NCBI GenBank assembly: GCA_016794365.1
Contig: JAEUKB010000025.1
Coordinates: forward strand, 116,693 to 180,692
Length of the DNA: 64,000 nt
Reading direction: 5' to 3'
Source: Myxococcales bacterium
Lineage (GTDB): Bacteria; Myxococcota_A; Polyangia; Palsa-1104; JAEUJZ01
In this document: piece after piece, positions 22,746 through 63,203 of the stretch
How positions within the stretch are numbered: position 1 is the first letter of the stretch
How the letters are laid out: each line of letters opens with the position of its first letter
Notes under the pieces: generated by a model
What the model saw: only the letters and a program-made list of their open reading frames with translations
Told to the model about the DNA's origin: nothing
The model's database searches: none
Made by a program: the position numbers and the translations under genes

Positions 22746-22754
22746 GAGGTCGCC

Positions 22755-33845: not shown

Positions 33846-33947
33846 TTGGAAACGGAGTTGCGCAGGCTCGCATGCAGACTGCGCTTGGCATTCTCCCCGA
33901 CTTCACCCCGGCGATTGTGCGCGCTGCTACGCGACGGACTCCGGAAC

Positions 33948-39793: not shown

Positions 39794-39864
39794 GAAGGCT
39801 CTGCAAGCTGGCGACTGCGCGAACCTCGGCGCGATCCACATCTTTACAGTGACGAGGGCGCAAG

Positions 39865-40773: not shown

Positions 40774-40848
40774 GGTTTTTTCGACGATGGTTCGCTGTGT
40801 TGGGAAGTGTTAGAGTGAGTCGTTACAGACGCCTGTCCTAGGGACAGG

Positions 40849-41928
40849 GTGGATGGGGGAACTGTGCCAAACCGCGTGCTCGGCTGGCTGATACTCTGTG
40901 TATCGGTAGTGCTGCTGTGTGCAGCTCCAGCTCTGTGTCAGGAAGAGAGTGCCGCGACCTATGAGGAAGAGGGCGCTCGGCTGTTCCTGAGCAAGAGCTA
41001 TGAGGGAGCGATCAAGCAGTTTACCCAAGCGTATCGGCTGGAGCCGAAGCCTCAGTATCTGTTTAACATCGGTCAGTCCTATCGCAAGCTGGGTCTGGCT
41101 GCGGAAGCAACGGAGTACTATCAGCGCTATCTGCATGATGAACAGAAGGTCGATCCGACCATCTATGCAGATCTGACATCCTACATTGATCAGTACTACG
41201 CATCCCAAGAGCGCGGCGGCAGTCGTCCCAAGGTAAGTGGTGAAGCAGCAGAGCCCGCACCGCTATTGGCAGCAGAGGAAATTGCCGACGCAGAAGAGCT
41301 GATCGCACAGTTTGTTCGGGATCATCGCGCAGGCAATCAAGCGGTCGCCAACGAGATCATGGATCAGCTCAAACAGGTGCTGCTGGTTCGTCGTGATCCG
41401 ATCCTGATGTATCACATTGCGAATGGCTTCGATCAGGTCAAAAAGCGCAAGGACGCGCTGGATTACTATCGTCGCTTTGTCGCAGTAGAGACAGCAGATC
41501 CACGACTTCGCCGTCGAGCATTTGAGCGGATTGCGCTGCTTACGCCTGCTCCTCCTGGTCAAAAATATCTGTGGCCAAGCTTGGCGCTGGCGATTCCAGG
41601 ACTCGCTGGTGTGCTGACCGGAGTCGGTCTTGCGGTTCAGTCTGGTGACAACTTTCAGCAGTTTCTTAGCGAAGCAGATGAACAGAAGAAGCGGGAGCTG
41701 CGCGACAAAGGAGTCGGTCTGTCGATCGGATCGGTGACCTCCTATGCCGTCGGTGGTGCCTTGCTCGCTGGCGCAGGAGCCTTTGCGATTGTGGCACTCA
41801 AAAAGGGAGTCCGTCAAAGCTCGGAAGAGAAGCGGACAGAGCCCACACGCGCACCAAAGAGCACCGTGACCGGATCTCTCTTGCCGCTTCCGGGCGGCTT
41901 GGGTCTGTCAATGGGGGGGAACTTTTAA
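40849..41928 (+). CDS. TPR-repeat membrane protein (non-core gene inserted in the type VI secretion cluster)
   Basis: N-terminal hydrophobic signal/anchor, TPR-like helices (GAIKQFTQAYRLEPKPQYLFNIGQSYRKLGLAAEATEYYQRYL) and two C-terminal TM segments. Confidence 0.55.
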   Translation: MDGGTVPNRVLGWLILCVSVVLLCAAPALCQEESAATYEEEGARLFLSKSYEGAIKQFTQAYRLEPKPQYLFNIGQSYRKLGLAAEATEYYQRYLHDEQKVDPTIYADLTSYIDQYYASQERGGSRPKVSGEAAEPAPLLAAEEIADAEELIAQFVRDHRAGNQAVANEIMDQLKQVLLVRRDPILMYHIANGFDQVKKRKDALDYYRRFVAVETADPRLRRRAFERIALLTPAPPGQKYLWPSLALAIPGLAGVLTGVGLAVQSGDNFQQFLSEADEQKKRELRDKGVGLSIGSVTSYAVGGALLAGAGAFAIVALKKGVRQSSEEKRTEPTRAPKSTVTGSLLPLPGGLGLSMGGNF

Positions 41929-43373: not shown

Positions 43374-43397
43374 CGCAGGGCCCATGGGAATCGTGAC

Positions 43398-47501: not shown

Positions 47502-47507
47502 GGAAGC

Positions 47508-48629
47508 GTGATGTCTGAGCTGCCACCAATCGATCTGGAGTCACTGCTACAGCCGATCTCGGAGCGCGAGCCCGCCGGAGAGTGGCTGCGCTATGAAGGC
47601 ACCTACGATGCAATTGCGGAAGCGCGTCGCGAGGAAGATGACTCCCTTCCGCAGGGTGTCTGGCAGATCAAGGTCAAGCGTGCGGATTTTGCGAAGGTTT
47701 CGCAACTTGGCCAAAAAGCCCTGCGTGAGCGGAGCAAAGATCTACAGATTGCAGTGTGGCTGTGTGAGGCATGGTTAAAGCTGCACGGCGTCTCTGGAAT
47801 GACGCTGGGTATCAAGCTGTGTACACAGCTTATGACGCGCTTTTGGGGATCGCTGTATCCGCTGGTGGAAGAAGGGGATTCGTCCTATCGGATGGCTCCT
47901 TTAGAGCTTTTGTCGGGCAAGATCTCTTTGCGGCTTAAAGAGATGTTTCTGACGGAGCCATATGGCGAGCGGCCCGCGTTTACCTGGATCGACTGGGAGC
48001 GTGCGCTGCGCAATGAAAAGACATCAAGCACGGGCGAAGAGATCCTGCCTGCGGTGTTCTTGGCTGCGGCTGCCAACACCAGTGGTCGCTTCTATTCCGC
48101 TCGCTATGCAGAGCTGTCTGCGCTGGATGAAGCCTCGCGCGAACTGGAAGACTTTGTGGTTGCGAAGCTTCCGGATCAACCGGCCATTTTGCGAACGCTT
48201 CGCAACTTGATCCGCGATATCCAGGCTTTGATTGCGCAGTACACACCAGCACCTGCTGTACCAGAGGAACCTTCACAAAGTTCAGATGTTGCGGTGTCCA
48301 GCGACGGTAGTGCAACCCATGATGAGCCTTCGGAGGCTGCAATGCATGGTGACGGATCATCCCCCGGTCGGCCCGCTGCACGGGGCGATGTCCGAGGTGA
48401 AGAAAGCGCAAGTGGCCCGATCCGCAGTCGGGTTCAAGCATATCAACGACTTGTCGAAGCGGCTGAATACCTTCAGCGCACAGAGCCCCACAGTCCAGTT
48501 CCGTACCTTGTGAAACGGGCCGTGGCTTGGGGTAATATGGACCTGATCCAACTTCTCGGTGAACTGGTGGCCGAGGGGGGAGATCGCCAGACGATCTATG
48601 CGCTGCTAGGGGTTAAGGGGCCGCAGTAG
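47508..48629 (+). CDS. tssA: type VI secretion system protein TssA (ImpA N-terminal domain)
   Basis: ImpA_N signature LLQPISEREPAGEWLRYEGTYDAIAEARREEDDSLPQGVWQ; 373 aa. Confidence 0.8.
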   Translation: MMSELPPIDLESLLQPISEREPAGEWLRYEGTYDAIAEARREEDDSLPQGVWQIKVKRADFAKVSQLGQKALRERSKDLQIAVWLCEAWLKLHGVSGMTLGIKLCTQLMTRFWGSLYPLVEEGDSSYRMAPLELLSGKISLRLKEMFLTEPYGERPAFTWIDWERALRNEKTSSTGEEILPAVFLAAAANTSGRFYSARYAELSALDEASRELEDFVVAKLPDQPAILRTLRNLIRDIQALIAQYTPAPAVPEEPSQSSDVAVSSDGSATHDEPSEAAMHGDGSSPGRPAARGDVRGEESASGPIRSRVQAYQRLVEAAEYLQRTEPHSPVPYLVKRAVAWGNMDLIQLLGELVAEGGDRQTIYALLGVKGPQ

Positions 48630-48730
48630 GACAGTAAGAGAAATGGTTCTCATGAGATGCCAAGGATTGGCCCTGGCGTCTGTAGATCAAACCGGGGCCT
48701 GTACGCCCCACTGGCTGAAGTGAGGAAGCG

Positions 48731-49237
48731 ATGTCTGAGAGTACCCAGCACAAGCTCGACCGAGTTAGGCCGCCACGGGTCCAGATCACCTACGATGTGG
48801 AAATCGGTGGCGCCATCCAGATGAAGGAGCTCCCCTTTGTGGTGGGAATCCTTGCTGATCTTGCAGGTCAGCAGGATGCTCTTCCCAAGCTCAAGGAGCG
48901 CAAGTTTGTTCAGATCGATCGGGACAACTTTAACCAGGTGCTCGGCAACATTGCGCCTCGGCTAAAGTACAGCGTTCCCAATCAGATGAAGAAGGACGGA
49001 TCGCCTTTCGGTGTGGATCTGACGTTCCGTCATCTGGATGACTTTCATCCGACTTCGATCGTGAAGAACACCAAGGCTCTGCGCGAGCTGTTGGAGATGC
49101 GCCAGCGCCTGGTGGATCTGCTGACCAAGCTGGATGGAAACGAGGATCTGCAAGGAGAGCTTCAGAAGCTGCTTGCGGACAAAGAGAAGTTTGGTGCTGT
49201 CAAGGCACTGGCCGCCAAGAGCGCGGTGTCGAGCTAA
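48731..49237 (+). CDS. tssB: type VI secretion contractile sheath small subunit TssB (VipA)
   Basis: 168 aa; RVQITYDVEIGGAIQMKELPFVVGILADLAG matches the conserved TssB N-terminal block. Confidence 0.88.
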   Translation: MSESTQHKLDRVRPPRVQITYDVEIGGAIQMKELPFVVGILADLAGQQDALPKLKERKFVQIDRDNFNQVLGNIAPRLKYSVPNQMKKDGSPFGVDLTFRHLDDFHPTSIVKNTKALRELLEMRQRLVDLLTKLDGNEDLQGELQKLLADKEKFGAVKALAAKSAVSS

Positions 49238-49249
49238 GGAGGGGTTGCC

Positions 49250-50716
49250 GTGGCTGAAAACGAGACGACTACCAAGACGAACAACGACATCCTCGACAAC
49301 CTGATTCGCGACGGCAAGATGGCTCGTGATGAGCTTCAGCTTGCGCACTCTCGGACCCTGATTGGCGAGTTTGTGAACCAGGTGGATCCCGCGCAGGTTC
49401 CGCCCGCAGCTGATCTGGCCAAGCTGGTGCTTCAGAAGATCGCGCAGATCGATGAAGTGCTGACGCAGCAGGTCAACGCGATCATGCACGATGAGCGCTT
49501 CCAGAAACTGGAAGGATCGTGGCGCGGTCTGAACTATCTGGTGATGAACACCGAGACTTCCACTTCGCTCAAGCTGCGCGTGATGCACGCGACGAAGAAA
49601 GAGCTACTGAACGATCTGGAAAAGGCTTCGGAATTCGATCAGAGCAATCTGTTCAAAAAGATCTATGAAGAGGAGTTTGGTACGTTCGGCGGCGCTCCCT
49701 ACGGCTGCCTGGTTGGCGACTATGAGTTCGGTCGTCATCCGCAGGACATCTCGCTTCTTTCCAAGATCTCGAACGTGGCTGCGGCTGCGCATGCTCCGTT
49801 CATCAGCGCGGCGAGTCCGAGGCTGTTCGATATGGAAAGCTACACCGAGCTTGGCAACCCGCGTGATCTGTCCAAGCTGTTTGAAAGCTCGGAGCTTATT
49901 ACCTGGCGTTCGTTCCGTGAATCGGAAGACTCGCGCTATGTTGCGCTGACGCTGCCGCGCGTGCTGGGTCGTCTTCCCTACGGAAACAAGACCGTTCCGG
50001 TGGAAGAGTTCCAGTTTGAAGAGGACACGGACGGAAAAGATCACAGCAAGTATCTGTGGAGCAACTCTGCATACGTGCTGGGTCAGCGTGTGACCAATGC
50101 GTTTGCGCTGCACAAGTGGACTGCTGCAATTCGCGGTGTGGAAGGTGGCGGTATTGTGCAGGGACTCCCAGCGCATACCTTCAAGACCGACGAAGGCGAC
50201 ATTGCGCTGAAGTGCCCGACGGAAATCGCCATCACGGATCGCCGTGAAAAGGAGCTGTCGGATCTGGGCTTCGTTGCGCTGTGTCACTGCAAGGACACGG
50301 ACTACGCAGCGTTCTTCGGAGGCCAGACGACCAACAAGCCGAAGACGTACAACACGCCGCAGGCCAATGCCAATGCGTCGCTGTCTTCGCAGCTTCCGTA
50401 CCTGCTCGCATCGTCGCGCTTTGCGCACTATCTGAAGGCGATCATGCGCGACAAGGTTGGTAGCTTCCTTACGCGTGAAAATGTTCAGAACTATCTGAAC
50501 AACTGGATCGCAAACTACATCCTGCTGCGTGATGACGCGGGTCAGGAAACCAAGGCCAAATATCCACTGCGCGAGGCTCGGATCGACGTGTTCGATGTTC
50601 CGGGTAAGCCCGGTGTGTACCGTGCGGTTGCATTCCTAAAGCCGCACTTCCAGCTCAACGAGCTGACCGCTTCGATTCGCTTGGTGGCAGAGCTTCCTCC
50701 GCCTGCCGCTGGTTGA
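49250..50716 (+). CDS. tssC: type VI secretion contractile sheath large subunit TssC (VipB)
   Basis: 488 aa; conserved sheath blocks (GAPYGCLVGDYEFG; LTLPRVLGRLPYG); directly follows tssB. Confidence 0.88.
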   Translation: MAENETTTKTNNDILDNLIRDGKMARDELQLAHSRTLIGEFVNQVDPAQVPPAADLAKLVLQKIAQIDEVLTQQVNAIMHDERFQKLEGSWRGLNYLVMNTETSTSLKLRVMHATKKELLNDLEKASEFDQSNLFKKIYEEEFGTFGGAPYGCLVGDYEFGRHPQDISLLSKISNVAAAAHAPFISAASPRLFDMESYTELGNPRDLSKLFESSELITWRSFRESEDSRYVALTLPRVLGRLPYGNKTVPVEEFQFEEDTDGKDHSKYLWSNSAYVLGQRVTNAFALHKWTAAIRGVEGGGIVQGLPAHTFKTDEGDIALKCPTEIAITDRREKELSDLGFVALCHCKDTDYAAFFGGQTTNKPKTYNTPQANANASLSSQLPYLLASSRFAHYLKAIMRDKVGSFLTRENVQNYLNNWIANYILLRDDAGQETKAKYPLREARIDVFDVPGKPGVYRAVAFLKPHFQLNELTASIRLVAELPPPAAG

Positions 50717-50780
50717 TAACGGGATGCTATGAAAGAGCCTCTCCTTTTCGTGAAGGCAGAGGCCGTAAGGGGAATTCGAG

Positions 50781-51269
50781 ATGCAGAACATTTTCTGGGA
50801 AATTGAAGGAATCAAGGGAGAGTCAACCTCCGATCAGGGCAAGGACATGATCGAGCTGCTTTCCTACAACCACGGTGTTTCGATGCCGCTTACGTCGGGT
50901 CCGTCGAACACCAGCCGTGCTTCGGGCCGCTGTGTTCACCAAGACTTCACCGTGACCAAGCATGCGGACCTTGCTTCGCCCACGCTCAACCTCAAGTGCT
51001 GCGGTGGCGAAGACATCAAGTCGATGAAGGTCCACGTTTGGAAGGCCGACAGCGCAGGCAAGCCGATCGAGTACCTGACCTACACGTTCGATTCCTGCAT
51101 TGTCACCAGCGTCTCTGTTGGCGGCGGTGGCGATCAGCCGGTTGAGACGATCACCTTCAGCTACAAGAAGATCACCTGGGATTACAACCAGCAGCTTCAG
51201 GCTCAGCCGGGTGGCAAGAAGGGCAAGAACTCCTCGAAGTGGTCGCTCGAAGAGAACAAGGGCAGCTAA
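50781..51269 (+). CDS. hcp: type VI secretion tube protein Hcp (TssD)
   Basis: 162 aa; FWEIEGIKGESTSDQGKDMIELLSYNHGVS...FTVTKHADLASPTLNLKCCGGEDIKS is the canonical Hcp pattern. Confidence 0.9.
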   Translation: MQNIFWEIEGIKGESTSDQGKDMIELLSYNHGVSMPLTSGPSNTSRASGRCVHQDFTVTKHADLASPTLNLKCCGGEDIKSMKVHVWKADSAGKPIEYLTYTFDSCIVTSVSVGGGGDQPVETITFSYKKITWDYNQQLQAQPGGKKGKNSSKWSLEENKGS

Positions 51270-51337
51270 GCGCATCGATCGCCGTGATCGGTGTGTGACT
51301 CTGCTTGCTTTGTGAACAGGTAGGAAACGTTCCAACG

Positions 51338-51817
51338 ATGCCGCTTCCGTCCAAACAGCACGTCGCATCGGTACCACTCTTTGAGCGGCTCTCTGATCGA
51401 AATCCAGAGCAGCCGCGTGAGCCGGTACCGCTGCGTACGCTGTCGTTTCCTGATCTGCTTGTGTCCGTTCAGGATGAGATTGCTCGACTCCTCAACACCA
51501 GAACGGGACTGTCTTCTCATGAGCTGCTCGAGCGGGAGCGCTCTGTCATCAATTTTGGGGCCAGCGATTTGCTCTGGGTCAATCCATACGATCCGCAGTC
51601 GATGCGTCACTTGGTCCAGATGCTTACGCAGACTGTCGAAGCATTTGAACCACGGCTTATGCATCCGCGCGTGACGGTCGTTCAGTTCGTGCAAACAGAG
51701 TCTCGGCTCATCCTCAACATCAGTGGAACGCTGATCACGCAGGATCTCAGAGAGCCGGTTTCATTCCGTGTGATGGCCAGTCCTCGTCTGTTGGAGCACA
51801 GAAGCCATGAGCAGTGA
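51338..51817 (+). CDS. tssE: type VI secretion baseplate subunit TssE (gp25/GPW-like)
   Basis: PLFERLSDRNPEQP...VSVQDEIARLLNTR matches the TssE N-terminal block. Start chosen at the ATG at 51338 preceded by AGGTAGGAA; the track ORF opens at 51305. Confidence 0.8.
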   Translation: MPLPSKQHVASVPLFERLSDRNPEQPREPVPLRTLSFPDLLVSVQDEIARLLNTRTGLSSHELLERERSVINFGASDLLWVNPYDPQSMRHLVQMLTQTVEAFEPRLMHPRVTVVQFVQTESRLILNISGTLITQDLREPVSFRVMASPRLLEHRSHEQ

Positions 51818-53615
51818 AGCCAAAGACGAGCTGCTACGTTCCTATCAGCGCGAACTTCAGTATCTGCGCTCGATGGGCGCGGAGTTTGCGCGAAAGTATC
51901 CGAAGATCGCGTCCCGACTTGATCTGTCCGCAGAGGCGTGTGCCGATCCCCACGTTGAGCGACTGATCGAGAGCTTTGCATTTTTAACCGCGCGACTTCA
52001 GCAGCGTCTCGATGCTGACTTTCCGCTGGTTACTACGTCACTGTTGGAATGTCTGTATCCACACCTACTACAGACTGTTCCTTCGATGTCGATTGCGCAC
52101 TTCGATGTCGATCCCGAACAAGGTCTGCCGCTTGGTGGGTTCACTGTTCGCAGAGGCGCGAAGCTGTTTGCGCAGACAGACACTGGCTCTCTGTGTCGAT
52201 TCCGAACCGGAAGTGATCTGACGCTGTGGCCGGTCGAGATCGTCTCTGCTCAGATTGAAGCGACGGATCGATATCCGTATCTGGATGCGTATCCCAAAGG
52301 GATCGCGATGCTGCGGCTCAAGCTGGTCTGTCAGACCGATAGCTTCAGCGAGCTGGATCTGCGATCGCTGCGGCTGTTTGTCAACGCATCCGCAGAAGTG
52401 GCTTCCGCGCTCTACGATCTGCTCACGGCTTCAACGGTTGGCGTTGCGCTGATTCCCGACGGTCGTCCTGAAGTTCAGTATCTGGGTCCGCAAGCGCTTC
52501 GTCCGGTTGGACTGGATGCGGAGGACGCTCTTCTTCCTTCCCCGGACTATGCGCATCCGGCCTATCGACTGCTTCAGGAATACTTTGTCTTTCCGCAGAA
52601 GTTTCTATTCTTCGATGTGGATCTGCCGCGCATTCAGCTCGCGCGCAAGACGGCGGATCTTCTGATCCTGCTGTCAGAGGTTCCGCCGCGATCGGTGTCT
52701 GTAGGAAAGAGCACCTTCCTACTTGGCTGCGCGCCGATCATCAACCTGTTTGCGAAGACCGCAGAGCCGATCCGACTGACGCACAAGCTGCCGGAATATC
52801 AGCTTGTAGCGGACAAGCGCGAAGAAAAGACCTGCGAGATTCACTCGATCGACAGAGTCTCGATGAGCGCGGACCCTGCTTCTAGTCAGCTGATTGCGCC
52901 GTTCTTTTCCTTCAATCACCCAGCGAGCGGAGATCAGCACCAAGCGTTCTATTACGCGCAGCGGAGACCGACCGGACGCGCAGACATGATCGGATGTGAC
53001 ACCTATCTGTCGTTTGTGGATCTGCGCTTTAAGCCGACGCAGCCAGCGACGCAGACGGTGTTCGCGCATACGCTCTGTACCAATCGGGACTTGGCTGCAC
53101 AGATGCCAGCGCGGGCGCGGCTTCAGATGGAAGACTCCGCTCCGGTGAAGTCGGTGATCTGTCTGTCCAAGCCAACAGAGCCGATCACACCACCGCTGGG
53201 AGGCGCTGCGCTGTGGCAGCTTGTCTCTCATTTGTCGCTGAATCACTTGTCGCTGATCGGAGGCAGAGAGAGCCGAGATGCGCTACGGGAGATCCTGCGA
53301 CTGTATCGCATGAGCCCGACCACAGCGACGGAAAATCAGATCTTGGGAATCTACGAGCTGCGCTGTACTCCCAAGACATTGCAAGCAGGAAGAGACGCCT
53401 GGCGCGGCTTTGTACATGGTCAGGAAGTACAGATTGTCTTTGATGAATCGATGTATGTCGGTCAGAGCGCGCTGATGATGTCAGCGGTGCTGAGCCGCTT
53501 CTTCGGTCTGTACACTGCGGTCAACTCATTTACTACGCTGGTGGTTCGTAGCCGTCAGCGACAGGAGGCGTGGAAGAAATGGCCACCACTGGCGGGCTCC
53601 CGCAACCTTCTGTAA
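51807..53615 (+). CDS. tssF: type VI secretion baseplate subunit TssF
   Basis: 602 aa; LLRSYQRELQYLRSMGAEFARKYPKIASRL and ERLIESFAFLTARLQ are TssF-conserved; overlaps tssE and tssG. Confidence 0.85.
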   Translation: MSSEAKDELLRSYQRELQYLRSMGAEFARKYPKIASRLDLSAEACADPHVERLIESFAFLTARLQQRLDADFPLVTTSLLECLYPHLLQTVPSMSIAHFDVDPEQGLPLGGFTVRRGAKLFAQTDTGSLCRFRTGSDLTLWPVEIVSAQIEATDRYPYLDAYPKGIAMLRLKLVCQTDSFSELDLRSLRLFVNASAEVASALYDLLTASTVGVALIPDGRPEVQYLGPQALRPVGLDAEDALLPSPDYAHPAYRLLQEYFVFPQKFLFFDVDLPRIQLARKTADLLILLSEVPPRSVSVGKSTFLLGCAPIINLFAKTAEPIRLTHKLPEYQLVADKREEKTCEIHSIDRVSMSADPASSQLIAPFFSFNHPASGDQHQAFYYAQRRPTGRADMIGCDTYLSFVDLRFKPTQPATQTVFAHTLCTNRDLAAQMPARARLQMEDSAPVKSVICLSKPTEPITPPLGGAALWQLVSHLSLNHLSLIGGRESRDALREILRLYRMSPTTATENQILGIYELRCTPKTLQAGRDAWRGFVHGQEVQIVFDESMYVGQSALMMSAVLSRFFGLYTAVNSFTTLVVRSRQRQEAWKKWPPLAGSRNLL

Positions 53616-54658
53616 TCGATGAGCTGTACAAAGAACCGCAGCGCTTTGGCTTCTATCAGCTTGTACGGCTGTTAGAGATGCTTGCTCCAGATTCCGTTGC
53701 GCTGGGCGAAGGGGGCGAGCCTGCGCTGGAAGCAGTGCGATTCCGTTCGTCCTTTTCGCTCGCATTTCCGCCGAGTGATATCGTTGCCATAGAGCCACCG
53801 AGCGGCGAAGATGGGATTCCTACCGTAACCGTTTCGATGCTGGGACTCGGCGGTGCGCATGGACCTCTTCCACACAACCTGACCGACTGGGTGCTGGAAC
53901 GCAATGCTGCGCGCGACCATGCACTGCGCGACTTTCTGGACATCTTCGATCATCGCTTGGTGTCGCTTTTGTTTCGGGTTCGTCAGCGCTGTAAGCTGGG
54001 AACAGAGTGGACTTCTCCCGAGGAGCATCACTTCGCAGAGTTTCTGTATGCGCTGATGGGAATGCTGACAGAGGGACTGCGAGATCGGCTGAAGGTTCCT
54101 GATCGCGCGCTGCTCCGTTATGCCGGACTGTTGACCAAGCAGCCGCGTGATGCGATGGGTCTGGAGCGAATGCTGACCGATCATTTTGGCGTCAAGGTGA
54201 TCTGTCATCAGCTTCGCGGAATGATGCGTCCGATCGAAGAAGAACAGTGGACCAAGATCGGACTCAGCGGTCAAAACCAGATGCTTGGGAGTCAAGCGCT
54301 GGTCGGAACGATGGTCTGGGATCAACAAGCCGGAATCGAGCTGGAAGTCGGGCCGCTGCCGTGGAATCGCTATCTGGACTTTTTGCCGGGACAGCCCGGA
54401 CTGCAAGCGCTGATTCAGCTTGCGCGGTTTTACATTGGACCAGCGTTTGAGATCTTTGTCGCGCTCCTCATCAAAGCGGAAGAGATTCCGCGTGCGCGGC
54501 TGAGTCAGCCTGTGAAGGACAAGCCACCAGTAGCGGAGCAGCCGATCTTGGGACTGACCTCGTTTCTGTCTTATGGGACGAAGCTACGCGGGACTCCTAG
54601 AGTTGCTCTGGGTGCGGTGGCCCGTTACAGCGATGAACCACTGAGGGCTACGCCGTGA
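53570..54658 (+). CDS. tssG: type VI secretion baseplate subunit TssG
   Basis: 362 aa; N-terminal LYKEPQRFGFYQLVRLLE matches the TssG start block; follows tssF with overlap. Confidence 0.8.
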   Translation: MEEMATTGGLPQPSVIDELYKEPQRFGFYQLVRLLEMLAPDSVALGEGGEPALEAVRFRSSFSLAFPPSDIVAIEPPSGEDGIPTVTVSMLGLGGAHGPLPHNLTDWVLERNAARDHALRDFLDIFDHRLVSLLFRVRQRCKLGTEWTSPEEHHFAEFLYALMGMLTEGLRDRLKVPDRALLRYAGLLTKQPRDAMGLERMLTDHFGVKVICHQLRGMMRPIEEEQWTKIGLSGQNQMLGSQALVGTMVWDQQAGIELEVGPLPWNRYLDFLPGQPGLQALIQLARFYIGPAFEIFVALLIKAEEIPRARLSQPVKDKPPVAEQPILGLTSFLSYGTKLRGTPRVALGAVARYSDEPLRATP

Positions 54659-56688
54659 GCGATCATGATTTTCTAAGTGCATCGACTCCTGCTGCGGATG
54701 CCTTGGTATTGGAGTCGTTTCATGGACAGGAAGAGCTGTCCTTGCCGTTTTTGTATCACCTTCAGTTTCTGTCGAACGATCGCAAGATCGACTTCAAGAA
54801 GCTGATGGGAAAAGCGGTAACGATCACCATCAAGCTTCCCGACAAGTCGAAGCGCCACATCTGCGGCATCGTGTCGCGCTTTACAGAGTCCGGATACGAT
54901 CCCAGACACGCCATCTACATTGCAGAGCTGCGTCCCTGGCTGTGGCTGCTGACGCTGCATGCGGACAATCGAATCTTTCAGAACAAGAGCGTTCCCGAGA
55001 TCATCGAAGAGGTCTTCTCAGATCTGGGCTTTCAAGACTTCAAAAAAAGCCTGAAGGGAACGTACGCCAAGCGCGAGTTCTGCGTGCAGTATCAGGAGTC
55101 GAGCTTCGACTTTGTCTGTCGCTTGATGGAAGACGAAGGAATCTTCTATTACTTCGAGCACAGCGACGGAAAGCACATGATGGTGCTAGCCGATGACAGC
55201 GATGGCTACGCCAAGTGTACGGGCTCTGAAGAAGTGAAAATGGGACTGGATGATCTGCCGAACAGCATCCGTGACTGCTCGTTTGAGGAGTCGATCGTCT
55301 CTACCGGATATGCACTGACAGACTACAACTTCGAGATTCCTTCCACTGATCTGTTTGTCAAGACAGGTGAGAGTTCGGCGCGGCTCGTCTACGATCATCC
55401 GGGCAACTACGCGAAGAAGGACGAAGGTGAGAGGCTCGCCAAGATTCGGATTGAATCGGTTGAGCATGCGCAGAAGGTGCTGCGTGCAAGCGGCAATGCG
55501 CGCGGCTTTACAGCGGGTGGAAAGTTCAAGCTGACCAAGCACGATCGCAGCGATCTCAATCAAGAGTATGTGGTGCGCAGCGTGTCGCATAAGGCAGATC
55601 GCGCGCGCTACGAAAATCAGATCGAAGCACTTCCTGCAACGGTTGTGTTTCGTCCGCTTCGCAAGACCCGCAGGCAGATGGCGCTGGGAAGTCAGGTCGC
55701 GACGGTGGTCGGCAAGTCTGGCGAGGAGATCTGGACCGACAAATACGGTCGCGTCAAAGTCCAGTTTCCGTGGGATCGCAAAGGCAAAAAGGATGAAAAC
55801 AGCTCGTGCTGGATTCGTGTTGCGCAGCACTGGGCGGGGAAGGGCTACGGAACGTTTTTTCTGCCGCGCATCGGTCAGGAAGTGGTGATCACGTTCATCG
55901 ATGGGAATCCCGACAGACCGCTGATCACCGGCGCGGTATATAACGCAGAACAGACGGTTCCGTACGCGCTGCCAGACAACCAGACCAAGAGCACCACCAA
56001 GTCGCGAACCAGCAAAGGTGGCGGTGGATTCAACGAGATCCGCTTGGAAGACAAGAAGGACTCCGAAGAGATCTACGTCCACGCGCAGAAGGACATGAAC
56101 ATTGAAGTCAAACACGATCGAACTGCCAAGATCGAGAATGACTGCAAGACAGAGATCAAAAACGATCGCAGCGCCAAGATCGATAACAACGACAAGACGG
56201 TGGTGAAAAAGAACCGGGAAGTCGAAGTGACCGAAGGCGATGAGCTGCTGCAAGTCAAGAAGGGGAATCGGACGATCTCCGTCGATAAAGGGGACGAAAA
56301 GCACACCGTTAAGGGCAAGCGAACCGTCTCTGTTGAGAAGGATGAAAAGCACAGCAACAAAGCGAAGTTCAGCCACACGGTCGATAAGGACTACATCCTG
56401 ACCATCAAGGGAGACCTGACGATCGAAGTGGATGGTGACATCAAGATCAAGTCGAAGAAGGGCATCAAGGCAGAGGCCTCTGCTGCGGTGGATCTCAAGT
56501 CGGGAGCGGACATGAAGCTCAAGGCGGGAGCCAACATGAAGCAGGAAGCAGCGATGAATCTGGATGTCAAAGCGGGTGTAGGAATGAAGCTCGAAGGCGT
56601 CAACATCGATGTGAAAGCATCGGCGATGGCGAAGCTGGAAGGCGGTGCAATGGCTGCGATCAAGGGTGCGCTACTAAAGCTGAACTAA
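54655..56688 (+). CDS. vgrG: type VI secretion spike protein VgrG (TssI), no C-terminal effector extension
   Basis: 677 aa. N-terminal gp27-like block (LVLESFHGQEELSLPFLYHLQFLS...LMGKAVTITI); gp5-like beta-helix repeats at the C-terminus (KIENDCKTEIKNDRSAKIDNNDKTVVKKNREVEV...); ends right after the beta-helix. Confidence 0.88.
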   Translation: MSDHDFLSASTPAADALVLESFHGQEELSLPFLYHLQFLSNDRKIDFKKLMGKAVTITIKLPDKSKRHICGIVSRFTESGYDPRHAIYIAELRPWLWLLTLHADNRIFQNKSVPEIIEEVFSDLGFQDFKKSLKGTYAKREFCVQYQESSFDFVCRLMEDEGIFYYFEHSDGKHMMVLADDSDGYAKCTGSEEVKMGLDDLPNSIRDCSFEESIVSTGYALTDYNFEIPSTDLFVKTGESSARLVYDHPGNYAKKDEGERLAKIRIESVEHAQKVLRASGNARGFTAGGKFKLTKHDRSDLNQEYVVRSVSHKADRARYENQIEALPATVVFRPLRKTRRQMALGSQVATVVGKSGEEIWTDKYGRVKVQFPWDRKGKKDENSSCWIRVAQHWAGKGYGTFFLPRIGQEVVITFIDGNPDRPLITGAVYNAEQTVPYALPDNQTKSTTKSRTSKGGGGFNEIRLEDKKDSEEIYVHAQKDMNIEVKHDRTAKIENDCKTEIKNDRSAKIDNNDKTVVKKNREVEVTEGDELLQVKKGNRTISVDKGDEKHTVKGKRTVSVEKDEKHSNKAKFSHTVDKDYILTIKGDLTIEVDGDIKIKSKKGIKAEASAAVDLKSGADMKLKAGANMKQEAAMNLDVKAGVGMKLEGVNIDVKASAMAKLEGGAMAAIKGALLKLN

Positions 56689-56689
56689 C

Positions 56690-57925
56690 ATGAGCGAAGA
56701 GTCACAGAATACGAAGGACACAGCGTCCAGTCCGCCGACAGAGTCTCCGCAAGGCGAGCACATCGAACACGATGAGGACGGCAACGTCAGCATGCGTGGA
56801 CCGCTGCGCGATGGAAAAATGGATGGAGAGTTTACGTTCTTCCAAGGCGGAAAGCTGTTTCAGAAGTCGCACTATAGGAACGATCTTCTCGACGGAGAAT
56901 CGGTCGAATATTTTCCAAGTGGGAAGGTCTGTCAGCGGGTCCATTTCAAGGCTGGAAAGATCAGCGGACTGCTGCGACGCTTTGATGAACAAGGTCGTCC
57001 AGAGCTACTGGCTGCGTACGTTCAGGGCGAGCTGCATGGCGACATGGTGACCTATGAAAACGGTCAGATGCAGAGCCAACAGCACTATGTCAAAGGCAAG
57101 AAGCACGGAATCGGAATCATTTATGCTCCCGATGGAACACCGCTTCTGTCGGCGCACTTTCAGAACGACAAGCGACATGGGGAAGCGGTCTACTTTGGTC
57201 CGCATGGTGTGGTGATTCGTCGCGAGCCTTATGTCGAAGGTCTGATTCACGGAACGGTGCAGGATTTTTATCCAGAAGGTGGACTGCGCGAAACCAGTCA
57301 GTATGTTTCGGGCAAGCTACATGGTGAATCGCAGGTGTTTTATCCGAACGGAAAGCTCCAGCGGCGGGCTCGCCATGAGCAGGGAGCGCCGATCGGAACG
57401 CCGGAGCAGTTCGATGAAAAGGGGCGTCTGCTACAGACTCTGCAAGCGCCAGCCAGTCCGTCGGTGGAAGCCCAAGCAGCAGATGCTGCCAAGCAGTCTG
57501 CAATTCGCGGTCTGATGGACGTTGCGCGCAAGAAAGCTGTGGCTGCGGTCGCGCCTGCGGTGACAGGAATTCTGGGTGGTGCAGCGATGCCTGCGGCTCC
57601 TGAAGTGGCGAGCGCAGCAGAGCTTCCGACCGCGCCTGAGCTTCCGAAAGCACCAGAGCTGCCACAGGCACCAGAGGTTCCTGAAGCGAAGCCAGAGCTG
57701 GCTGCGGCAGCAGAGAAGCTGGCAGAAAAAGCGAAGGAACAAGCGGCAGAGAAAGCAGCAGAGAAGGCAGATGCCAAGACGCTGGCTGCCAAGGCTGATG
57801 CATCCGCAGCAAAGACTGCGAAGAAGGCACCACCACCGCCACCACCGCGCAAAGGACTGATTTTAGAGCCTCCGAACATTGGTACATTGCCACGAACAGA
57901 GACTCCGACACCGAGAGGGAAGTGA
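56690..57925 (+). CDS. MORN-variant/YwqK-like repeat protein with Ala/Pro/Lys-rich C-terminal tail, immediately downstream of vgrG
   Basis: Repeated G.L.G....Y..nG units (YFPSGKVCQRVHFKAGKISGLLRRFDEQG; TYENGQMQSQQHYVKGKKHGIGIIYAPDG; FYPEGGLRETSQYVSGKLHGESQVFYPNGKL). Tail (APELP)n ... AEKAAEKA ... PPPPPPR. Confidence 0.6.
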   Translation: MSEESQNTKDTASSPPTESPQGEHIEHDEDGNVSMRGPLRDGKMDGEFTFFQGGKLFQKSHYRNDLLDGESVEYFPSGKVCQRVHFKAGKISGLLRRFDEQGRPELLAAYVQGELHGDMVTYENGQMQSQQHYVKGKKHGIGIIYAPDGTPLLSAHFQNDKRHGEAVYFGPHGVVIRREPYVEGLIHGTVQDFYPEGGLRETSQYVSGKLHGESQVFYPNGKLQRRARHEQGAPIGTPEQFDEKGRLLQTLQAPASPSVEAQAADAAKQSAIRGLMDVARKKAVAAVAPAVTGILGGAAMPAAPEVASAAELPTAPELPKAPELPQAPEVPEAKPELAAAAEKLAEKAKEQAAEKAAEKADAKTLAAKADASAAKTAKKAPPPPPPRKGLILEPPNIGTLPRTETPTPRGK

Positions 57926-58311
57926 TGCCAAACGCAGTATGTATGGGAGCAATGCTCAAGTGTTCGTTTGGGGTGGCTCCGGGAACACTGATGGTGCTTC
58001 CCGCCAACTTGGTGATGTCAAACGGACCGGTGGCCAACATCATGGATCACAAGCCCATGGTGAACGTCATGCCGTTTGGAATGTGTCAGTCGATGGCCAA
58101 TCCGATGGTGGCGGCAGCGACGGCGGCAGCGATGGGAGTCCTGACTCCGATGCCGTGCATTCCCAATACACCTGCGCCGTGGATTGTTGGTGCGCCGACG
58201 GTGCTACTTGGGAATATGCCGATTCTGAACAACTCCGCCAAGCTGATGTGTATGTGGGCCGGAGTGATTGAAATTCTGCCTCCTGGTGTTCCTACAGTGA
58301 TGACTCCTTAA
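57922..58311 (+). CDS. DUF4280 (PAAR-like) domain protein
   Basis: 129 aa, Met/Cys/Gly/Pro-rich with the DUF4280-type pattern (VCMGAMLKCSFG...MVNVMPFGMC...MPCIPN...LMCMWAGVI). Start overlaps the upstream stop. Confidence 0.6.
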   Translation: MMPNAVCMGAMLKCSFGVAPGTLMVLPANLVMSNGPVANIMDHKPMVNVMPFGMCQSMANPMVAAATAAAMGVLTPMPCIPNTPAPWIVGAPTVLLGNMPILNNSAKLMCMWAGVIEILPPGVPTVMTP

Positions 58312-58320
58312 GGAGCGAAG

Positions 58321-59187
58321 ATGGCTACGCGGGTTCGCAAGACAGCAGTAGTAGCACCGGCAGAGTCCGTGCCAGAGACGACGCCTGCTCAGACAACTCG
58401 GCGACGAGCAGCGACCAGTCGAACGGCAACGACTCGACGGACGGCTAGCTCTTCGCGGAGTCAGCGCATTGCGGTGGGAACCGATCCAGCACCGCCCGCT
58501 GCGGAGCCGTCTTCTGAAGCACTGCCTGTAAATGAAGCGGTACCTGTACCTGAAGCAGTCCCTGCGATTGCGACTCCTGTAGAGAGTCCGGTTGCGACTC
58601 CCAATCCGGCAGAGTCCAAGTCACAGCTCGCTGCTGCTACACCTTTTGTTCAAGCAGAGCGAAGCGAGCAGGACTTCACTTCTGTGATGTCGGCGCGTGT
58701 GGACTCGATTCATAAGCTGGTTGCGGAAGGACAAGATCGACTCTCGCAAGAGATCAGTAAGTCGCAGACCCAGACTGTGCGCAACGTCTCTGGACTGGCG
58801 CATGATGTCGATCGGCTGATGACACAGCTACAGGGAATGTCGGCGCGCATCGCACAGACAGAGTCTGTCCTATCGCGGATCGAAGCCACGCTGGTGCCGC
58901 TTTCTCGTGCGATCTCCGCGTCTTTGCTTCCCATTAAGCCGGTTGAAAAGGGAGTCAGTCCAGAGCTTTTGGAAAGTCGATTGGCGACGGCGCTGGCGCC
59001 GATCTTGGCAGAGCTTATCGAGATGCGTGCGCAGCGCTCACGCGATAGCAGTCTGGCGCAGGTTGAGCAGCAGATCCTACTGACGGAACTCAAGAGATTG
59101 CGCAGCGTTGCACTTCCGGCTGCGGAGCGAACGACGGATCCGTTACTCTCTGTAGGAAAGACTTCGCGGCGCGGGTCTGCAAAGTAA
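58321..59187 (+). CDS. hypothetical protein with Ala/Thr/Pro/Arg-rich disordered N-terminus and predicted coiled-coil C-terminal half
   Basis: Compositional reading only; 10 bp after the DUF4280 gene. Confidence 0.45.
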   Translation: MATRVRKTAVVAPAESVPETTPAQTTRRRAATSRTATTRRTASSSRSQRIAVGTDPAPPAAEPSSEALPVNEAVPVPEAVPAIATPVESPVATPNPAESKSQLAAATPFVQAERSEQDFTSVMSARVDSIHKLVAEGQDRLSQEISKSQTQTVRNVSGLAHDVDRLMTQLQGMSARIAQTESVLSRIEATLVPLSRAISASLLPIKPVEKGVSPELLESRLATALAPILAELIEMRAQRSRDSSLAQVEQQILLTELKRLRSVALPAAERTTDPLLSVGKTSRRGSAK

Positions 59188-59273: not shown

Positions 59274-62200
59274 ATGCGACATTCACTCACTGTGAGGGGT
59301 CTGTGCCTTGCTGTCTGGGCATGCCTCGCGCTCTTGTGGGCATCATGTAGTGTGCCGGATGGGGTGATGCTGTCGATCCGGGCTCCCGAGGGAGTTCGTC
59401 TTCAGAGCTACATCATCAAGATTCAGGATCGCAGCACTCGCAAAGTGGTGTTTCTGTCCGGCATTCAAACGCTGAGTGATAAGCGACTGCTGGCCAGCGA
59501 TCCGATGAAGGTTGCGCTGCCATTTTCCCAGCATGGTCGATTCCTGATCCAAGTCCTGGCTGCCAATGTTCCCAATGTGGAGTCTCTGCCCCAGAAAGGG
59601 AATCCAGAGCCACAGTACTTCTTTGCGCGGATCATCGACATCGCTGCGTATCAGGAAGTCGAAGCCAAGCTGCTTCCGGTTCCATCGGAATATGACGTAG
59701 ATGGAGATCACTTTCCCGACGCTGTGACCTGGGTCGCACAGAACGCGGAAGCCGCAGCGATGTATCAAGATCAACCGGAAGTGCTGGACTGTCTGGATGC
59801 CGATCCTCCACCGGGAGATCTGGAGCCCGTGCGCTTGCGGAGCTTTGACATTCATCCCATTGCCAGTACGTCTTGCAACGTCAAGCTGCGTCCATCCCAT
59901 CCGCCCACCAGCTTGCCGCCGCTTGAGCTGTTTGACGTAACGTGTGCGCAGCAGCCGCGTGCCTGTGAAGACAAAGACGGAGACGGAGATCCCGAAGGAA
60001 GTGACTGCGATGACAATGACAAGAATCGCTTTCACGGAAATCCTCGGCCCCGGAACTGCTGCGAGTGTACCGATATCACGTCTTGCGCAACCAACCACAA
60101 CAAGCGGAAGGACACGACGACGTGTTCTCCCAAGCGCTGTGACACCACGACAGACTTTGACTGCACAGGGCTCAACGTAGACTGCTTCACCGACGAAGAC
60201 TGTGATGGATACTCACCGAACAATCCCGATCCAAAGCTGCGTGACTGCGATGACACGGACTTTCGGGTTCATCCCAATGCGCAGAAGATCTGTGATCCGG
60301 ACGATGGTGTGATCAAAGACTGGGCATGTGATGGTCGTCCGCAAGCAGGCTGTGTTCCCTGCGATCTGGATGGTGATGGATTCCAGCGCGATGATTCGCC
60401 ATCAGGAACAACTTGTCCGACGAAAAATTACAAGATGTCAGGACGCGCTACGGACTGCGATGACAACGATCGCGGCGTATTTCCGGGCTCTGCAACGACT
60501 GTAGGAACAGCGACCAAGTACGGAACGCTGGATGCGACATCCAGAGGATTTAATGTCCTCTCCGCGATGCGCGGACTGTGTCGCAACACAGATCCAAGCG
60601 GAATGCCGCAGAACACGAGCTGTGAGAGCACGGCGCAAGCGCGTAGTGGCTGTCCTACGGCTGCCTGTGATGCGGACGGAGACGGATTCCCAAAGAACGT
60701 CGCAGGCTGCACGGTTGTCGGCAAGCCGTTTGACTGCAATGACAGTGATCCCACTGCGTTTCCGGGCGCTCCGATTGCTTGTGATGGCAAAGATCATGAC
60801 TGCGACAACGTACCGGATGTCTGCTCGTTTGATCGTGACAAGGACGGCTACGATGCAGCCAGTGACTGTGATGATGCCAATGCAGATGTTCATCCGTTTG
60901 CTGCGGAAATGTGCAATGGCAGAGACGATGACTGTGACGGACTTATCGACGAGCTGAACCCGGACTCGCTGGGCGTTCGGATGGTTCAGACCGGGACCGA
61001 TGGATCGAAGAAGATCACATCTTGCGCCGATTCCACAGTCGGACTGTGCGGACAAAAAGATGGCAGCGGATTTTTCAGCGGTCGCTGTGTCTGTACTTCG
61101 ATTGTTCCTACTTCGACCATCGATACCAAAGCGTTTCAGGGGTGTCCTGCACAAGACAACAGTGCGCTCTTCACCGCGCGCTGCTTTGGTGCGAACCAGC
61201 CCAAGCCACAGACCTGCGATGCGCTCAACCCGGTGGATGATGACTGCAACGGATCTCTCGATGATCCAACGGGTAACAACCTGAAGGAAAAGGGTCAGGT
61301 GTGCGGTGTCACAGTCAACGGAACGCGCTGCAAAGCCGGTACGGTGACAGGCTGCGTGCGTACCAAGGACAATCCGTTTTACGCGCTGAGCGTTCCGGGC
61401 TTCCCGCAAAAAGATCGCTACTTGGTCTGTAAGGATCAGACCGATCCAATTGCCGAGCTGTGCAACGGCTTCGACGATGACTGTAGCGGTGCGCTGCCCC
61501 CAGAAGAGAGAGATGCAGACGGCGACAAGTACATGTCGTGCTCGGGCTGCAAAGACACCGACAACCCGTTGGCGTTCAACAGCAACATGCTGTACTGCAA
61601 CGACTGCGATGACACCAAACGGAGTGTCTGGCCTGCGATTCCTCCGCCCAGTATGCAAGCGCGTGATGGCGCACCGGAGCTGTGTGACAGCCTCGATAAC
61701 AAGTGTGTCAGTGGCAACGTCAGCATGACCCCTGGCAACGATGGCTTTGAGCAGTGTGGAAGCGGAGCAGACAGCGGAAAAGGAACGTGTTGTCCGATGC
61801 TACGGATGTGCATTGATCCGCAGACAGACTTCGCACACTGCGGTGGCTGCACGGGCGCTTGTAGCACCAGCACGGCGGATCGCTGCGGCGGTGGACAGTG
61901 TATGTGCAACAACGAAGTGGCGTGCGATCCAGCCAGTCAGACCAAGTCTCTGTGTAAAGCAGGAACTGGCTGCGTGCAGTGTCTGGCCGGAGCAGACTGC
62001 ATTCGTATCCTGGGTGCTGCGACGCAAACTCGTGCATGCAGTCCGACGCAGAATCGCTGCGTAGAGTGTACCGATAACTCGTTCTGTGCAGCATTCCCAG
62101 GTCGTCCTTCCTGCGATACCGGAACCGGCAAGTGCGCGGTCTGTCTGAGCAACGCAGACTGCAAGACCGCAACGAATCCGGGCTGCAAAGTCGATGCAAC

Positions 62201-63203
62201 AGACAGCAGCAAGAACATCTGTGTGGAGTGTACGCAGAACAGTCACTGCACCACACCGGGCAAGACGACGTGCGATACGACGATCAACAAGTGCGTGCCG
62301 TGCTTGATCGGTGCGGACTGCAAGAACATGACGCCTGCGCAGTGCAAGACCAATGCAGACTCGACGCTCAATGTCTGTGTGGAGTGTCTGGCGAACAACG
62401 ACTGCAAGACGCTTACATCACGACCGATCTGTGACACGGCCAAGAACAAGTGCGTACCGTGCCTTGGCGACACAGACTGTCCGATGACGGCTCCCAAGTG
62501 CCTCAAAGATGCGGGCGGAGACAGCTCGAAGAACCTGTGTGTCTCTTGCGTGACCAGTACAGACTGTGCTGCAGTCGCCGGAAAGCCATTCTGTGACTTG
62601 ACCTCGCGTCAGTGCGTCGCTTGCCAAGGAAACCCAGACTGCTCTTCGGTCGCTGGAAAGCCTGCGTGTTACGTAAACGCTGCGGACACGACCAAGAATC
62701 AGTGTGTTCCTTGCGTAGGAACGAGCGATTGTCCGATGGCAACACCGACGTGCAAGACCAACGCGGTAGATCCCAGCAAGAACATGTGTCTGATCTGTCT
62801 GGCGGATGCCAACTGTCCGCTCGCGACGCCCATTTGCTACAAAGATCCGGGCGGAGATGACACCAAGAACTACTGCGTAGCGTGTACAGCGAACGCGCAG
62901 TGCAAAGCACCAACCGCGAAGTGTTACGTCGATGCAGATCCAAAGAAGAACGTCTGCACCGCATGTCTGGTAAACGGTGACTGTAGCGGAACCAACAAGT
63001 TCTGTCAGACGGTTGCTGCCATGCCTGTGAAGAACCTCTGTGTGCCGTGCGCAGCGAATGCAGACTGCAAGACTACAAGCGCTCCCAAGTGCTACATAGA
63101 TGCAGCCGATCCTACCAAGACATCATGTGTGGAGTGCTTGATGAACGCGGACTGTCCAATGGGCAAGCCAACGTGTAACATGACCACGCACGTTTGTATG
63201 TAA
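59274..63203 (+). CDS. giant secreted Cys-rich protein: MopE-like putative metal-binding motifs (DCDD.D....PGA.E.C.G.DDDCDG) followed by about 20 Myxococcus-type cysteine-rich repeats
   Basis: Signal peptide (LCLAVWACLALLWASC). N-terminal half with repeated CDD.D.......CDG..D.DCD modules. The C-terminal half is a tandem array of about 45-aa units (C..C...ADC.......C..D...S.KN.CV.C..N..C). 1309 aa. Confidence 0.75.
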   Translation: MRHSLTVRGLCLAVWACLALLWASCSVPDGVMLSIRAPEGVRLQSYIIKIQDRSTRKVVFLSGIQTLSDKRLLASDPMKVALPFSQHGRFLIQVLAANVPNVESLPQKGNPEPQYFFARIIDIAAYQEVEAKLLPVPSEYDVDGDHFPDAVTWVAQNAEAAAMYQDQPEVLDCLDADPPPGDLEPVRLRSFDIHPIASTSCNVKLRPSHPPTSLPPLELFDVTCAQQPRACEDKDGDGDPEGSDCDDNDKNRFHGNPRPRNCCECTDITSCATNHNKRKDTTTCSPKRCDTTTDFDCTGLNVDCFTDEDCDGYSPNNPDPKLRDCDDTDFRVHPNAQKICDPDDGVIKDWACDGRPQAGCVPCDLDGDGFQRDDSPSGTTCPTKNYKMSGRATDCDDNDRGVFPGSATTVGTATKYGTLDATSRGFNVLSAMRGLCRNTDPSGMPQNTSCESTAQARSGCPTAACDADGDGFPKNVAGCTVVGKPFDCNDSDPTAFPGAPIACDGKDHDCDNVPDVCSFDRDKDGYDAASDCDDANADVHPFAAEMCNGRDDDCDGLIDELNPDSLGVRMVQTGTDGSKKITSCADSTVGLCGQKDGSGFFSGRCVCTSIVPTSTIDTKAFQGCPAQDNSALFTARCFGANQPKPQTCDALNPVDDDCNGSLDDPTGNNLKEKGQVCGVTVNGTRCKAGTVTGCVRTKDNPFYALSVPGFPQKDRYLVCKDQTDPIAELCNGFDDDCSGALPPEERDADGDKYMSCSGCKDTDNPLAFNSNMLYCNDCDDTKRSVWPAIPPPSMQARDGAPELCDSLDNKCVSGNVSMTPGNDGFEQCGSGADSGKGTCCPMLRMCIDPQTDFAHCGGCTGACSTSTADRCGGGQCMCNNEVACDPASQTKSLCKAGTGCVQCLAGADCIRILGAATQTRACSPTQNRCVECTDNSFCAAFPGRPSCDTGTGKCAVCLSNADCKTATNPGCKVDATDSSKNICVECTQNSHCTTPGKTTCDTTINKCVPCLIGADCKNMTPAQCKTNADSTLNVCVECLANNDCKTLTSRPICDTAKNKCVPCLGDTDCPMTAPKCLKDAGGDSSKNLCVSCVTSTDCAAVAGKPFCDLTSRQCVACQGNPDCSSVAGKPACYVNAADTTKNQCVPCVGTSDCPMATPTCKTNAVDPSKNMCLICLADANCPLATPICYKDPGGDDTKNYCVACTANAQCKAPTAKCYVDADPKKNVCTACLVNGDCSGTNKFCQTVAAMPVKNLCVPCAANADCKTTSAPKCYIDAADPTKTSCVECLMNADCPMGKPTCNMTTHVCM

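Follow-up and report, generated by a model that had tools for sequence, protein, structure and literature searches.

A toxin-less VgrG, a TseF-like MORN protein, a DUF4280 cap and a new coiled-coil family: a candidate spike-loading operon at the end of a myxobacterial type VI secretion cluster

Introduction

What does a type VI secretion system (T6SS) deliver when its VgrG spike has no toxin domain, and are the genes translated behind vgrG effectors, immunity proteins or parts of the spike? The question is raised by a 64,000-nucleotide stretch of DNA (the "window") from a Myxococcales bacterium (a Polyangia/Myxococcota metagenome-assembled genome, MAG; assembly GCA_016794365.1, contig JAEUKB010000025.1, positions 116,693 to 180,692 of the forward strand), in which a complete T6SS cluster is closed by a tight plus-strand series of four genes. 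These encode VgrG, a MORN_2 repeat protein, a DUF4280 PAAR-like protein and a 288-amino-acid (aa) protein with a coiled-coil C-terminus, here called CC288. A sequence-only reading of the window had proposed the three genes behind vgrG as a novel effector/adaptor/immunity set. We instead think it reasonably likely that the series is an operon for loading the spike of an H3-type T6SS (the type represented by the Pseudomonas aeruginosa H3-T6SS and the Paraburkholderia T6SS-b), with the MORN protein carried on VgrG and CC288 as a co-cargo or adaptor.

Results

The spike gene offers no place for a payload of its own. VgrG (TssI; 54655..56688, + strand, 677 aa; TIGR03361, 3.7e-186) comprises Phage_GPD, Phage_base_V and Gp5_trimer_C domains over residues 25–567 and a weak DUF2345 match up to residue 654, and no extra domain was found past its gp5 needle. 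Known domains reach about residue 654 of 677 and leave too little sequence for a toxin domain at the C-terminus, whose absence the sequence-only reading had noted. The close coupling that it described is equally real: the ATG of the MORN gene follows the VgrG stop after a 1-nt gap, the MORN stop and the DUF4280 ATG share an A (TGATG), and CC288 starts 9 nt past the DUF4280 stop with a Shine–Dalgarno sequence (AAGGAG) ahead of it. All four open reading frames (ORFs) were verified where that reading had placed them, and homologues of every one of them occur in the same order on >15 independent contigs, so these are genes and not chance ORFs.

The gene that adjoins vgrG encodes a 411-aa MORN_2 repeat protein (56690..57925, +; PF07661, 2.8e-24) that is similar to TseF (PA2374) of Pseudomonas aeruginosa (BLASTP E=7e-15, 27–39% identity, with a score that comes partly from the repeats). 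TseF, at 178 aa, contains three MORN motifs and is released in an H3-T6SS-dependent way; it was pulled down with VgrG3 and VgrG1b, binds the Pseudomonas quinolone signal (PQS) on outer membrane vesicles and promotes iron uptake, and its homologues mostly adjoin VgrG (Lin et al., 2017, PMC5379069). The AlphaFold2 (AF2) model of the window protein has a single globular domain, in which 19 strands form a single-layer MORN sheet of β-hairpin repeats (residues 24–241; 56759..57412, +; predicted local distance difference test, pLDDT, >90), and Foldseek matched this model to MORN1 (6t4d, 6t69; E ~1e-9) and junctophilin (E 1e-6). No catalytic or toxin domain was present in family searches, in the AF2 model or among the Foldseek matches. 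In a multiple alignment with 18 homologues including TseF, the protein is collinear across the repeats and the helix that follows them (residues 259–291, QAADAAKQSAIRGLMDVARKKAV…; 57464..57562, +; alignment and AF2), of which the short homologues of other phyla have a shorter form.

Compared with these homologues, the Myxococcota proteins have one additional N-terminal repeat and a 160-aa tail in which their longer helix (residues 259–291) is counted, so that at 411 aa the window protein departs from the small size without extension (~180–250 aa) that is usual for TseF-like proteins. The clade-specific tail, delimited by alignments (57563..57922, +), contains (APELP)n repeats (57632-57685, +), an Ala/Lys/Glu helix (residues 337–371, +), a poly-Pro stretch (57830-57847, +) and the terminal motif LILEPPNIGTLP (57857-57892, +), followed by …PRGK. 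Clade-wide, the tail keeps a run of 6 or 7 Pro and the end motif [R/K]KG[LM]ILEPPNIG[TS]LP…PRGK; its architecture persists even in a distant locus (L093), and its motifs occur once each within the window. A WH2/actin-type interpretation of the tail, based on the helix AIRGLMDVARKKAV and the poly-Pro stretch, was rejected as a main reading: the helix is also present in tail-less homologues, and there is no LKKV motif. The low-complexity tail also overwhelmed a word-index search with the whole protein, and a domain-only query still missed orthologues, which were therefore obtained through CC288 neighbors and a DUF4280-based genome scan.

The third gene (57925..58311, +) encodes a DUF4280 PAAR-like spike cap without any extension (PF14107, 1.2e-33; 116.3 bits against a gathering cut-off of 26.3), which also matches the IglG model NF041248 (6.4e-18), below that model's cut-off. 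The sequence-only reading had named the family correctly, but its length of 129 aa is probably one residue too long: homologues begin MPNAV, which favors initiation from the ATG at 57925 (128 aa) over the GTG at 57922. Cys13, 54, 78 and 109 are invariant in 81/81 aligned sequences, in line with the four essential cysteines described for this PAAR-like family (PMC5014421). The protein is 62% identical (BLASTP E=1e-41) to PA2375, the DUF4280 PAAR-like protein of the H3-T6SS (PMC7376260), and no solved homologue was found by sequence.

Conservation of this arrangement was followed at two depths. Among relatives in the clade (contigs encoding CC288 homologues, together with a metagenome scan), the order VgrG – ~400-aa MORN protein – DUF4280 – CC288 – ~1340-aa MopE-motif lipoprotein is kept in every contig that is long enough, and synteny within this Myxococcota clade stops past the lipoprotein. 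Even in the distant locus L093, identities are 69% for VgrG, 50% for the MORN protein, 77% for DUF4280 and 65% for the lipoprotein, as against 27% for CC288, and locus L091 has the same pattern. Further afield, a genome scan with the DUF4280 alignment yielded 80 loci from many phyla (57–97% identity), the ORFs of which were compared with the window proteins by BLASTP. At 50 of the 80, VgrG, a MORN-like protein (200–290 aa) and DUF4280 are adjacent and co-directional inside T6SS clusters, with hosts that include Oxalobacteraceae, Comamonadaceae, Gemmatimonadota, Longimicrobiales, Chlorobiota and Nitrospirales; the 1-nt gap and overlaps of 1–4 nt at the gene junctions recur in relatives. VgrG and DUF4280 occur together with no MORN gene at 2/80 loci, and the other 28 have no adjacent VgrG (6 with a short upstream sequence, 5 with another T6SS gene and 17 without a T6SS gene). 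The sequence-only reading had named missing vgrG linkage in relatives as the observation that would count against it; this linkage is present in all clade contigs of sufficient length and at the 50 loci above. Its statement that the three genes are not core type VI genes is formally correct, but the MORN and DUF4280 proteins behave otherwise than such a label implies: they are fixed accessories that this T6SS subtype conserves, in contrast to cargo cassettes that vary.

The same distribution bears on whether the MORN protein could be a chaperone or adaptor, non-secreted or co-secreted, that keeps a strongly hydrophobic DUF4280 protein soluble and loads it onto VgrG, much as DUF2169 serves DUF4150 PAAR-like proteins and Eag/DUF1795 serves PAAR effectors. 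Its gene occupies precisely the place between vgrG and DUF4280, where stop and start codons overlap, an arrangement repeated across the 50 loci; the cap contains just 5 charged residues alongside 18 Met (a total that includes the additional residue from the GTG start), and attempts to purify DUF4280 proteins in soluble form, PA2375 among them, failed (PMC5014421). The pairing also extends to loci without T6SS genes, as described below. Yet TseF itself reaches the supernatant in a T6SS-dependent manner and binds VgrG (PMC5379069), the window's cap bears no effector domain that would require an adaptor, and some T6SS clusters combine VgrG with a DUF4280 protein 55–60% identical to the window's in the absence of any MORN gene: Caballeronia zhejiangensis p3 (L088), with the order tssH–DUF4280–tssI–tagH, and L082, where DUF4280 follows VgrG. 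Since both have the cap without the MORN gene, the MORN protein is not obligatory for it. The adaptor families DUF4123/Tap, DUF1795/Eag and DUF2169 had no Pfam match in the MORN, DUF4280 or CC288 proteins. We regard a chaperone role as conceivable but rather doubtful, and favor a MORN protein that travels on VgrG.

Members of the DUF4280 subfamily (62–67% identical) are also found outside T6SSs, in the Firmicutes loci L047, L058, L072 and L079 and in L066, L069 and L029 (Methanoperedens). One of these, L047, is a contractile-injection locus, where a phage-type sheath and a gp19 tube accompany a WHD-AAA ATPase. In each of the four Firmicutes loci, a 600–670-aa classic-MORN protein is encoded <10 kb from DUF4280, there is no T6SS gene, and a HAMP-domain protein lies nearby, which in L047 and L058 includes an adenylate/guanylate-cyclase domain; caspase-domain and eCIS_core proteins are found in the Methanoperedens loci. 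The pairing of MORN and DUF4280 proteins may thus be older than the T6SS, and MORN-repeat proteins may be a general partner of an ultra-conserved DUF4280 tip in T6SSs and in Firmicutes contractile injection systems. Four MAG contigs labeled "uncultured Bifidobacterium sp." (L055, L061, L062 and L063) encode a complete Gram-negative T6SS with a TssC ~70% identical to that of the window, and these bins are probably mislabeled or contaminated.

An effector/immunity cassette, in which the MORN protein (as a YwqK relative) would be the immunity protein and CC288 or some unrecognized fold the toxin, is what the sequence-only reading had in view. The MORN_2 family does share its name with Bacillus subtilis YwqK, the C-terminal domain of CC288 evolves fast, like many effectors, and a search for a toxic effector elsewhere in the window found none. 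However, a toxin domain is present in 0/4 proteins, and the absence of a toxin fold from the trio, which that reading had judged by eye, was borne out by family searches and by Foldseek. The MORN gene moreover lies upstream of CC288 with the cap gene between them, occurs at the 50 loci without CC288, and belongs to a module that is fixed, not variable, in relatives; nothing in CC288 points to a transmembrane segment, an enzyme or a pore. The immunity reading fails because no toxin gene precedes the MORN gene, because its presence is fixed and because the RefSeq label "YwqK antitoxin" sits on TseF itself, a secreted and VgrG-binding protein; with no cognate toxin upstream or in the window, we consider such a cassette highly improbable. 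The label in question ("toxin-antitoxin system YwqK family antitoxin") is attached to TseF at positions 9404-9940 of NZ_CP137515.1 (L089), and is misleading for T6SS-linked MORN_2 proteins.

CC288 (58321..59187, +) belongs to a small unannotated family: homologue searches gave 33 matches among 5.8 billion proteins, a family profile search gave 19 cluster representatives among 1.84 billion, and no Pfam, NCBIfam or PHROG family matched. Hidden Markov model (HMM) searches of all retrieved loci place it exclusively in the Myxococcota clade, and it is found only alongside the tailed MORN protein; in other phyla, the position past DUF4280 is taken by a gene for a substrate-binding protein, a TssJ-like lipoprotein or a SPOR protein. 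The compositional features seen by eye, namely the Ala/Pro/Lys/Glu tail of the MORN protein, the Arg/Thr/Ala-rich N-terminus of CC288 and the helical C-terminus of the latter, are all real. In the AF2 model, residues 1–107 are disordered and two helices (108–202 and 214–264; 58642..59112, +; pLDDT 79–97) form a hairpin, for which fold searches returned generic coiled-coils only and no specific structural match. Matches to alpha-xenorhabdolysin and ZorA (E ~0.01–0.02) are far below cut-offs and were dismissed as coiled-coil noise.

The best-conserved part of CC288 is its N-terminal Arg/Ser/Thr-rich peptide (residues 1–52; 58321..58476, +; 10 Arg, 11 Thr, 6 Ser, net charge +9), which alignments with distant homologues place at 56% identity versus 23–24% for the helices; the Pro/Ala/Val/Glu linker is hypervariable in length and sequence. 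The peptide has the consensus MATRVRK…TTRRRAxTSRTAxTRRxASSSRxxR, and remote members (P0059-61) retain …TRxRK…RRRxxxxRxxxxxRRxAxSSRxLRP. So strongly constrained a peptide on a fast-evolving body suggests docking on a conserved partner, and CC288 is a probable co-cargo or adaptor that would be docked through it.

Alternatively, CC288, and with it the lipoprotein, may not be a T6SS substrate, and CC288 would instead be a cytoplasmic coiled-coil regulator or positioner, or an unrelated syntenic neighbor. Long coiled-coils with basic disordered tails are typical of scaffolds, other H3-type clusters all function without CC288, the adjacent lipoprotein is Sec-exported and so not cargo, and the synteny is limited to one phylum-level clade. 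On the contrary, the 9-nt gap to the cap gene with its strong Shine–Dalgarno sequence, the unchanged DUF4280→CC288→MopE position in L091 and L093 despite the divergence of CC288, and the combination of an invariant terminal peptide with a variable body, which is typical of delivered proteins, argue for a link with the spike. We judge a role apart from the T6SS unlikely and retain co-cargo or adaptor as the preferred role.

A precedent for an Arg-rich N-terminal T6SS delivery signal is offered by RIX, a delivery domain present in effectors and in secreted adaptors (PMC10435454). Like the CC288 peptide, RIX is an Arg-rich stretch of ~50–55 aa that opens the protein, with a variable C-terminal region behind it, but it is confined to Vibrionaceae and Moritellaceae, and the resemblance to CC288 is one of position and composition only. 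A bolder version of the preferred role, in which the CC288 peptide would be a Myxococcota-specific T6SS loading signal, the tailed MORN protein a secreted adaptor and CC288 a new class of cargo, is a tentative idea to which we give limited credence.

Directly after CC288, every clade locus encodes a Cys-rich lipoprotein with MopE motifs (1309 aa; 59274..63203, +; family search and synteny), with a weak Myxo_Cys_RPT match. Its conservation within the clade (59–86%) is above that of CC288 and the MORN protein, and it has a lipobox (LWAS-C here, AATS-C in L006), from which it follows that it is Sec-exported and not T6SS cargo. A link between the lipoprotein and the module is probable; that its place never changes suggests a role at the cell surface tied to the T6SS, of which it may be a surface partner.

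The rest of the T6SS core lies upstream on the same strand (38453..54658, +), with tssK, tssL, a TPR gene, a periplasmic-binding-protein-like gene, tssM, tssA, tssB, tssC, hcp, tssE, tssF and tssG, as assigned by Pfam and by BLASTP to relatives. The TPR gene and the periplasmic-binding-protein/ANF-receptor-like gene between tssL and tssM (window 40849-43373) may be a sensory or accessory module of the T6SS. By tblastn, no ClpV/TssH was found in the whole 64-kb window; tssG abuts vgrG in all relatives of the Myxococcota clade, this cluster included, and the Burkholderiales clusters (L014-L064, about 4600-7270) have a ClpV-sized gap of ~2.7 kb at the tssG/vgrG position. Upstream of the cluster (18072-26840 and 32685-34552 region) are genes for a phage-type integrase and for two giant VIT–VWA proteins (1557 and 1361 aa) that adjoin each other; a 299-aa ORF there contains part of a Ser/Thr kinase domain.

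Discussion

Homology, domain architecture, gene order, the pattern of conservation and the absence of a toxin fold lead us to a conceptual model in which the operon loads the spike. VgrG would form the trimeric spike, and the 128-aa DUF4280 protein, by analogy with the capping known for IglG and PA2375, would sit on it as a metal-stabilized PAAR-like cone. The β-hairpin sheet of the MORN protein may act as a platform for binding proteins or ligands that docks on VgrG and leaves with the spike as non-toxic cargo, as the VgrG binding and secretion of TseF would predict. The 160-aa tail and CC288, which always co-occur, we infer to be an added lineage-specific layer of cargo or adaptor, in which the Arg-rich peptide of CC288 would be the docking signal, directed either at the spike complex or at the acidic (APELP)n/Glu-rich MORN tail, and its helical hairpin the putative working end.

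Several observations weigh against this model. No experimental datum exists for any protein of this clade. The similarity to TseF is modest and in part repeat-driven, so that the case for orthology is mainly one of synteny, and common descent, as opposed to function, may explain part of the synteny within one clade. The P. aeruginosa cap gene, PA2375, runs convergently to tseF, unlike the co-directional, overlapping cap gene of the window; PQS, the ligand of TseF, is not expected in Myxococcota, and the extracellular function of TseF is therefore not transferable. No relation between CC288 and any secreted protein was detected, and its peptide is Ser/Thr-rich and predicted by AF2 to be disordered, as opposed to the predicted helical RIX. 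Finally, the real payload of this T6SS may be located elsewhere.

The comparison replaces a misleading automatic label, "YwqK antitoxin," by a functional context with experimental backing. TseF and DUF4280 are no Pseudomonas oddity: they are a conserved accessory pair in a whole T6SS subtype that spans Burkholderiales, Gemmatimonadota, Nitrospirota, Chlorobiota and Myxococcota, and given this breadth the PQS-dependent role of TseF is not ancestral. The Myxococcota version, with its conserved tail, its new small protein with a constrained peptide and its surface lipoprotein, is a natural experiment that could reveal how a spike without a toxin takes up its cargo and what predatory or social myxobacteria deliver by T6SS.

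Comparison with known systems

The link to TseF emerged from tblastn of plasmid records, which led to Paraburkholderia phymatum pBPHY01 and to a P. aeruginosa record. The latter reads tssG – tssH – hypothetical – M91 peptidase – tssI/VgrG – "YwqK" (178 aa), with a convergent DUF4280 gene, and its end is the H3-T6SS vgrG3 (PA2373)–tseF (PA2374)–PA2375. This chromosomal H3-T6SS end is borne by a 91-kb "plasmid" (L089), which may be a misassembly. The two systems share the same three families, the order vgrG→MORN and a position at the end of a tssBC-hcp-tssEFG operon, and the window VgrG is 41% identical to VgrG3 (679 aa; BLASTP). They differ in that TseF has 178 aa and no tail, while the window protein has more repeats and the long tail; in that clpV3 and an M91 peptidase gene precede vgrG3, both of which are absent here; and in that P. 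aeruginosa has no CC288 or MopE gene.

The gene order is also matched by the P. phymatum T6SS-b, described as vgrG – YwqK antitoxin – PAAR-like – hypothetical (PMC8356804). There (Bphy_5985 vgrG, Bphy_5986 "YwqK," Bphy_5987 PAAR-like) and in Oxalobacteraceae and Comamonadaceae, the genes have the same co-directional order and overlapping junctions as in the window, with DUF4280 68–78% identical (68% in P. phymatum) and TssC 63–71% identical. Their MORN proteins, however, are 200–250 aa long and without a tail, and in the place of CC288 they have one of the downstream genes given above for other phyla (substrate-binding protein, TssJ-like lipoprotein or SPOR protein).

Two further systems resemble the operon in their parts. 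Francisella IglG–IglF has a DUF4280 cone with four conserved Cys and a cap that links to a partner protein (PMC5014421), but IglG holds its partner by an N-terminal helical extension; as this extension is missing here, any partner would bind the cone itself or VgrG. The VgrG–DUF2169–DUF4150 arrangement of the Agrobacterium Tde2 type likewise combines a spike, a small accessory protein and a PAAR-like protein, though these are of other families and its PAAR-like protein bears a toxin, whereas the window's DUF4280 protein bears none.

Set beside these systems, the module is not novel as a whole, contrary to the sequence-only reading: its VgrG–MORN–DUF4280 triad matches P. aeruginosa vgrG3–tseF–PA2375 and the P. 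phymatum T6SS-b and was already known, with TseF as its only functionally studied member. What the window and its relatives add is the cross-phylum conservation of the pair, a MORN protein in a tailed variant and the CC288 family with its invariant N-terminal peptide. Within the module, CC288 is the only really new element; together with the tail and the trailing lipoprotein, it sets the Myxococcota clade apart.

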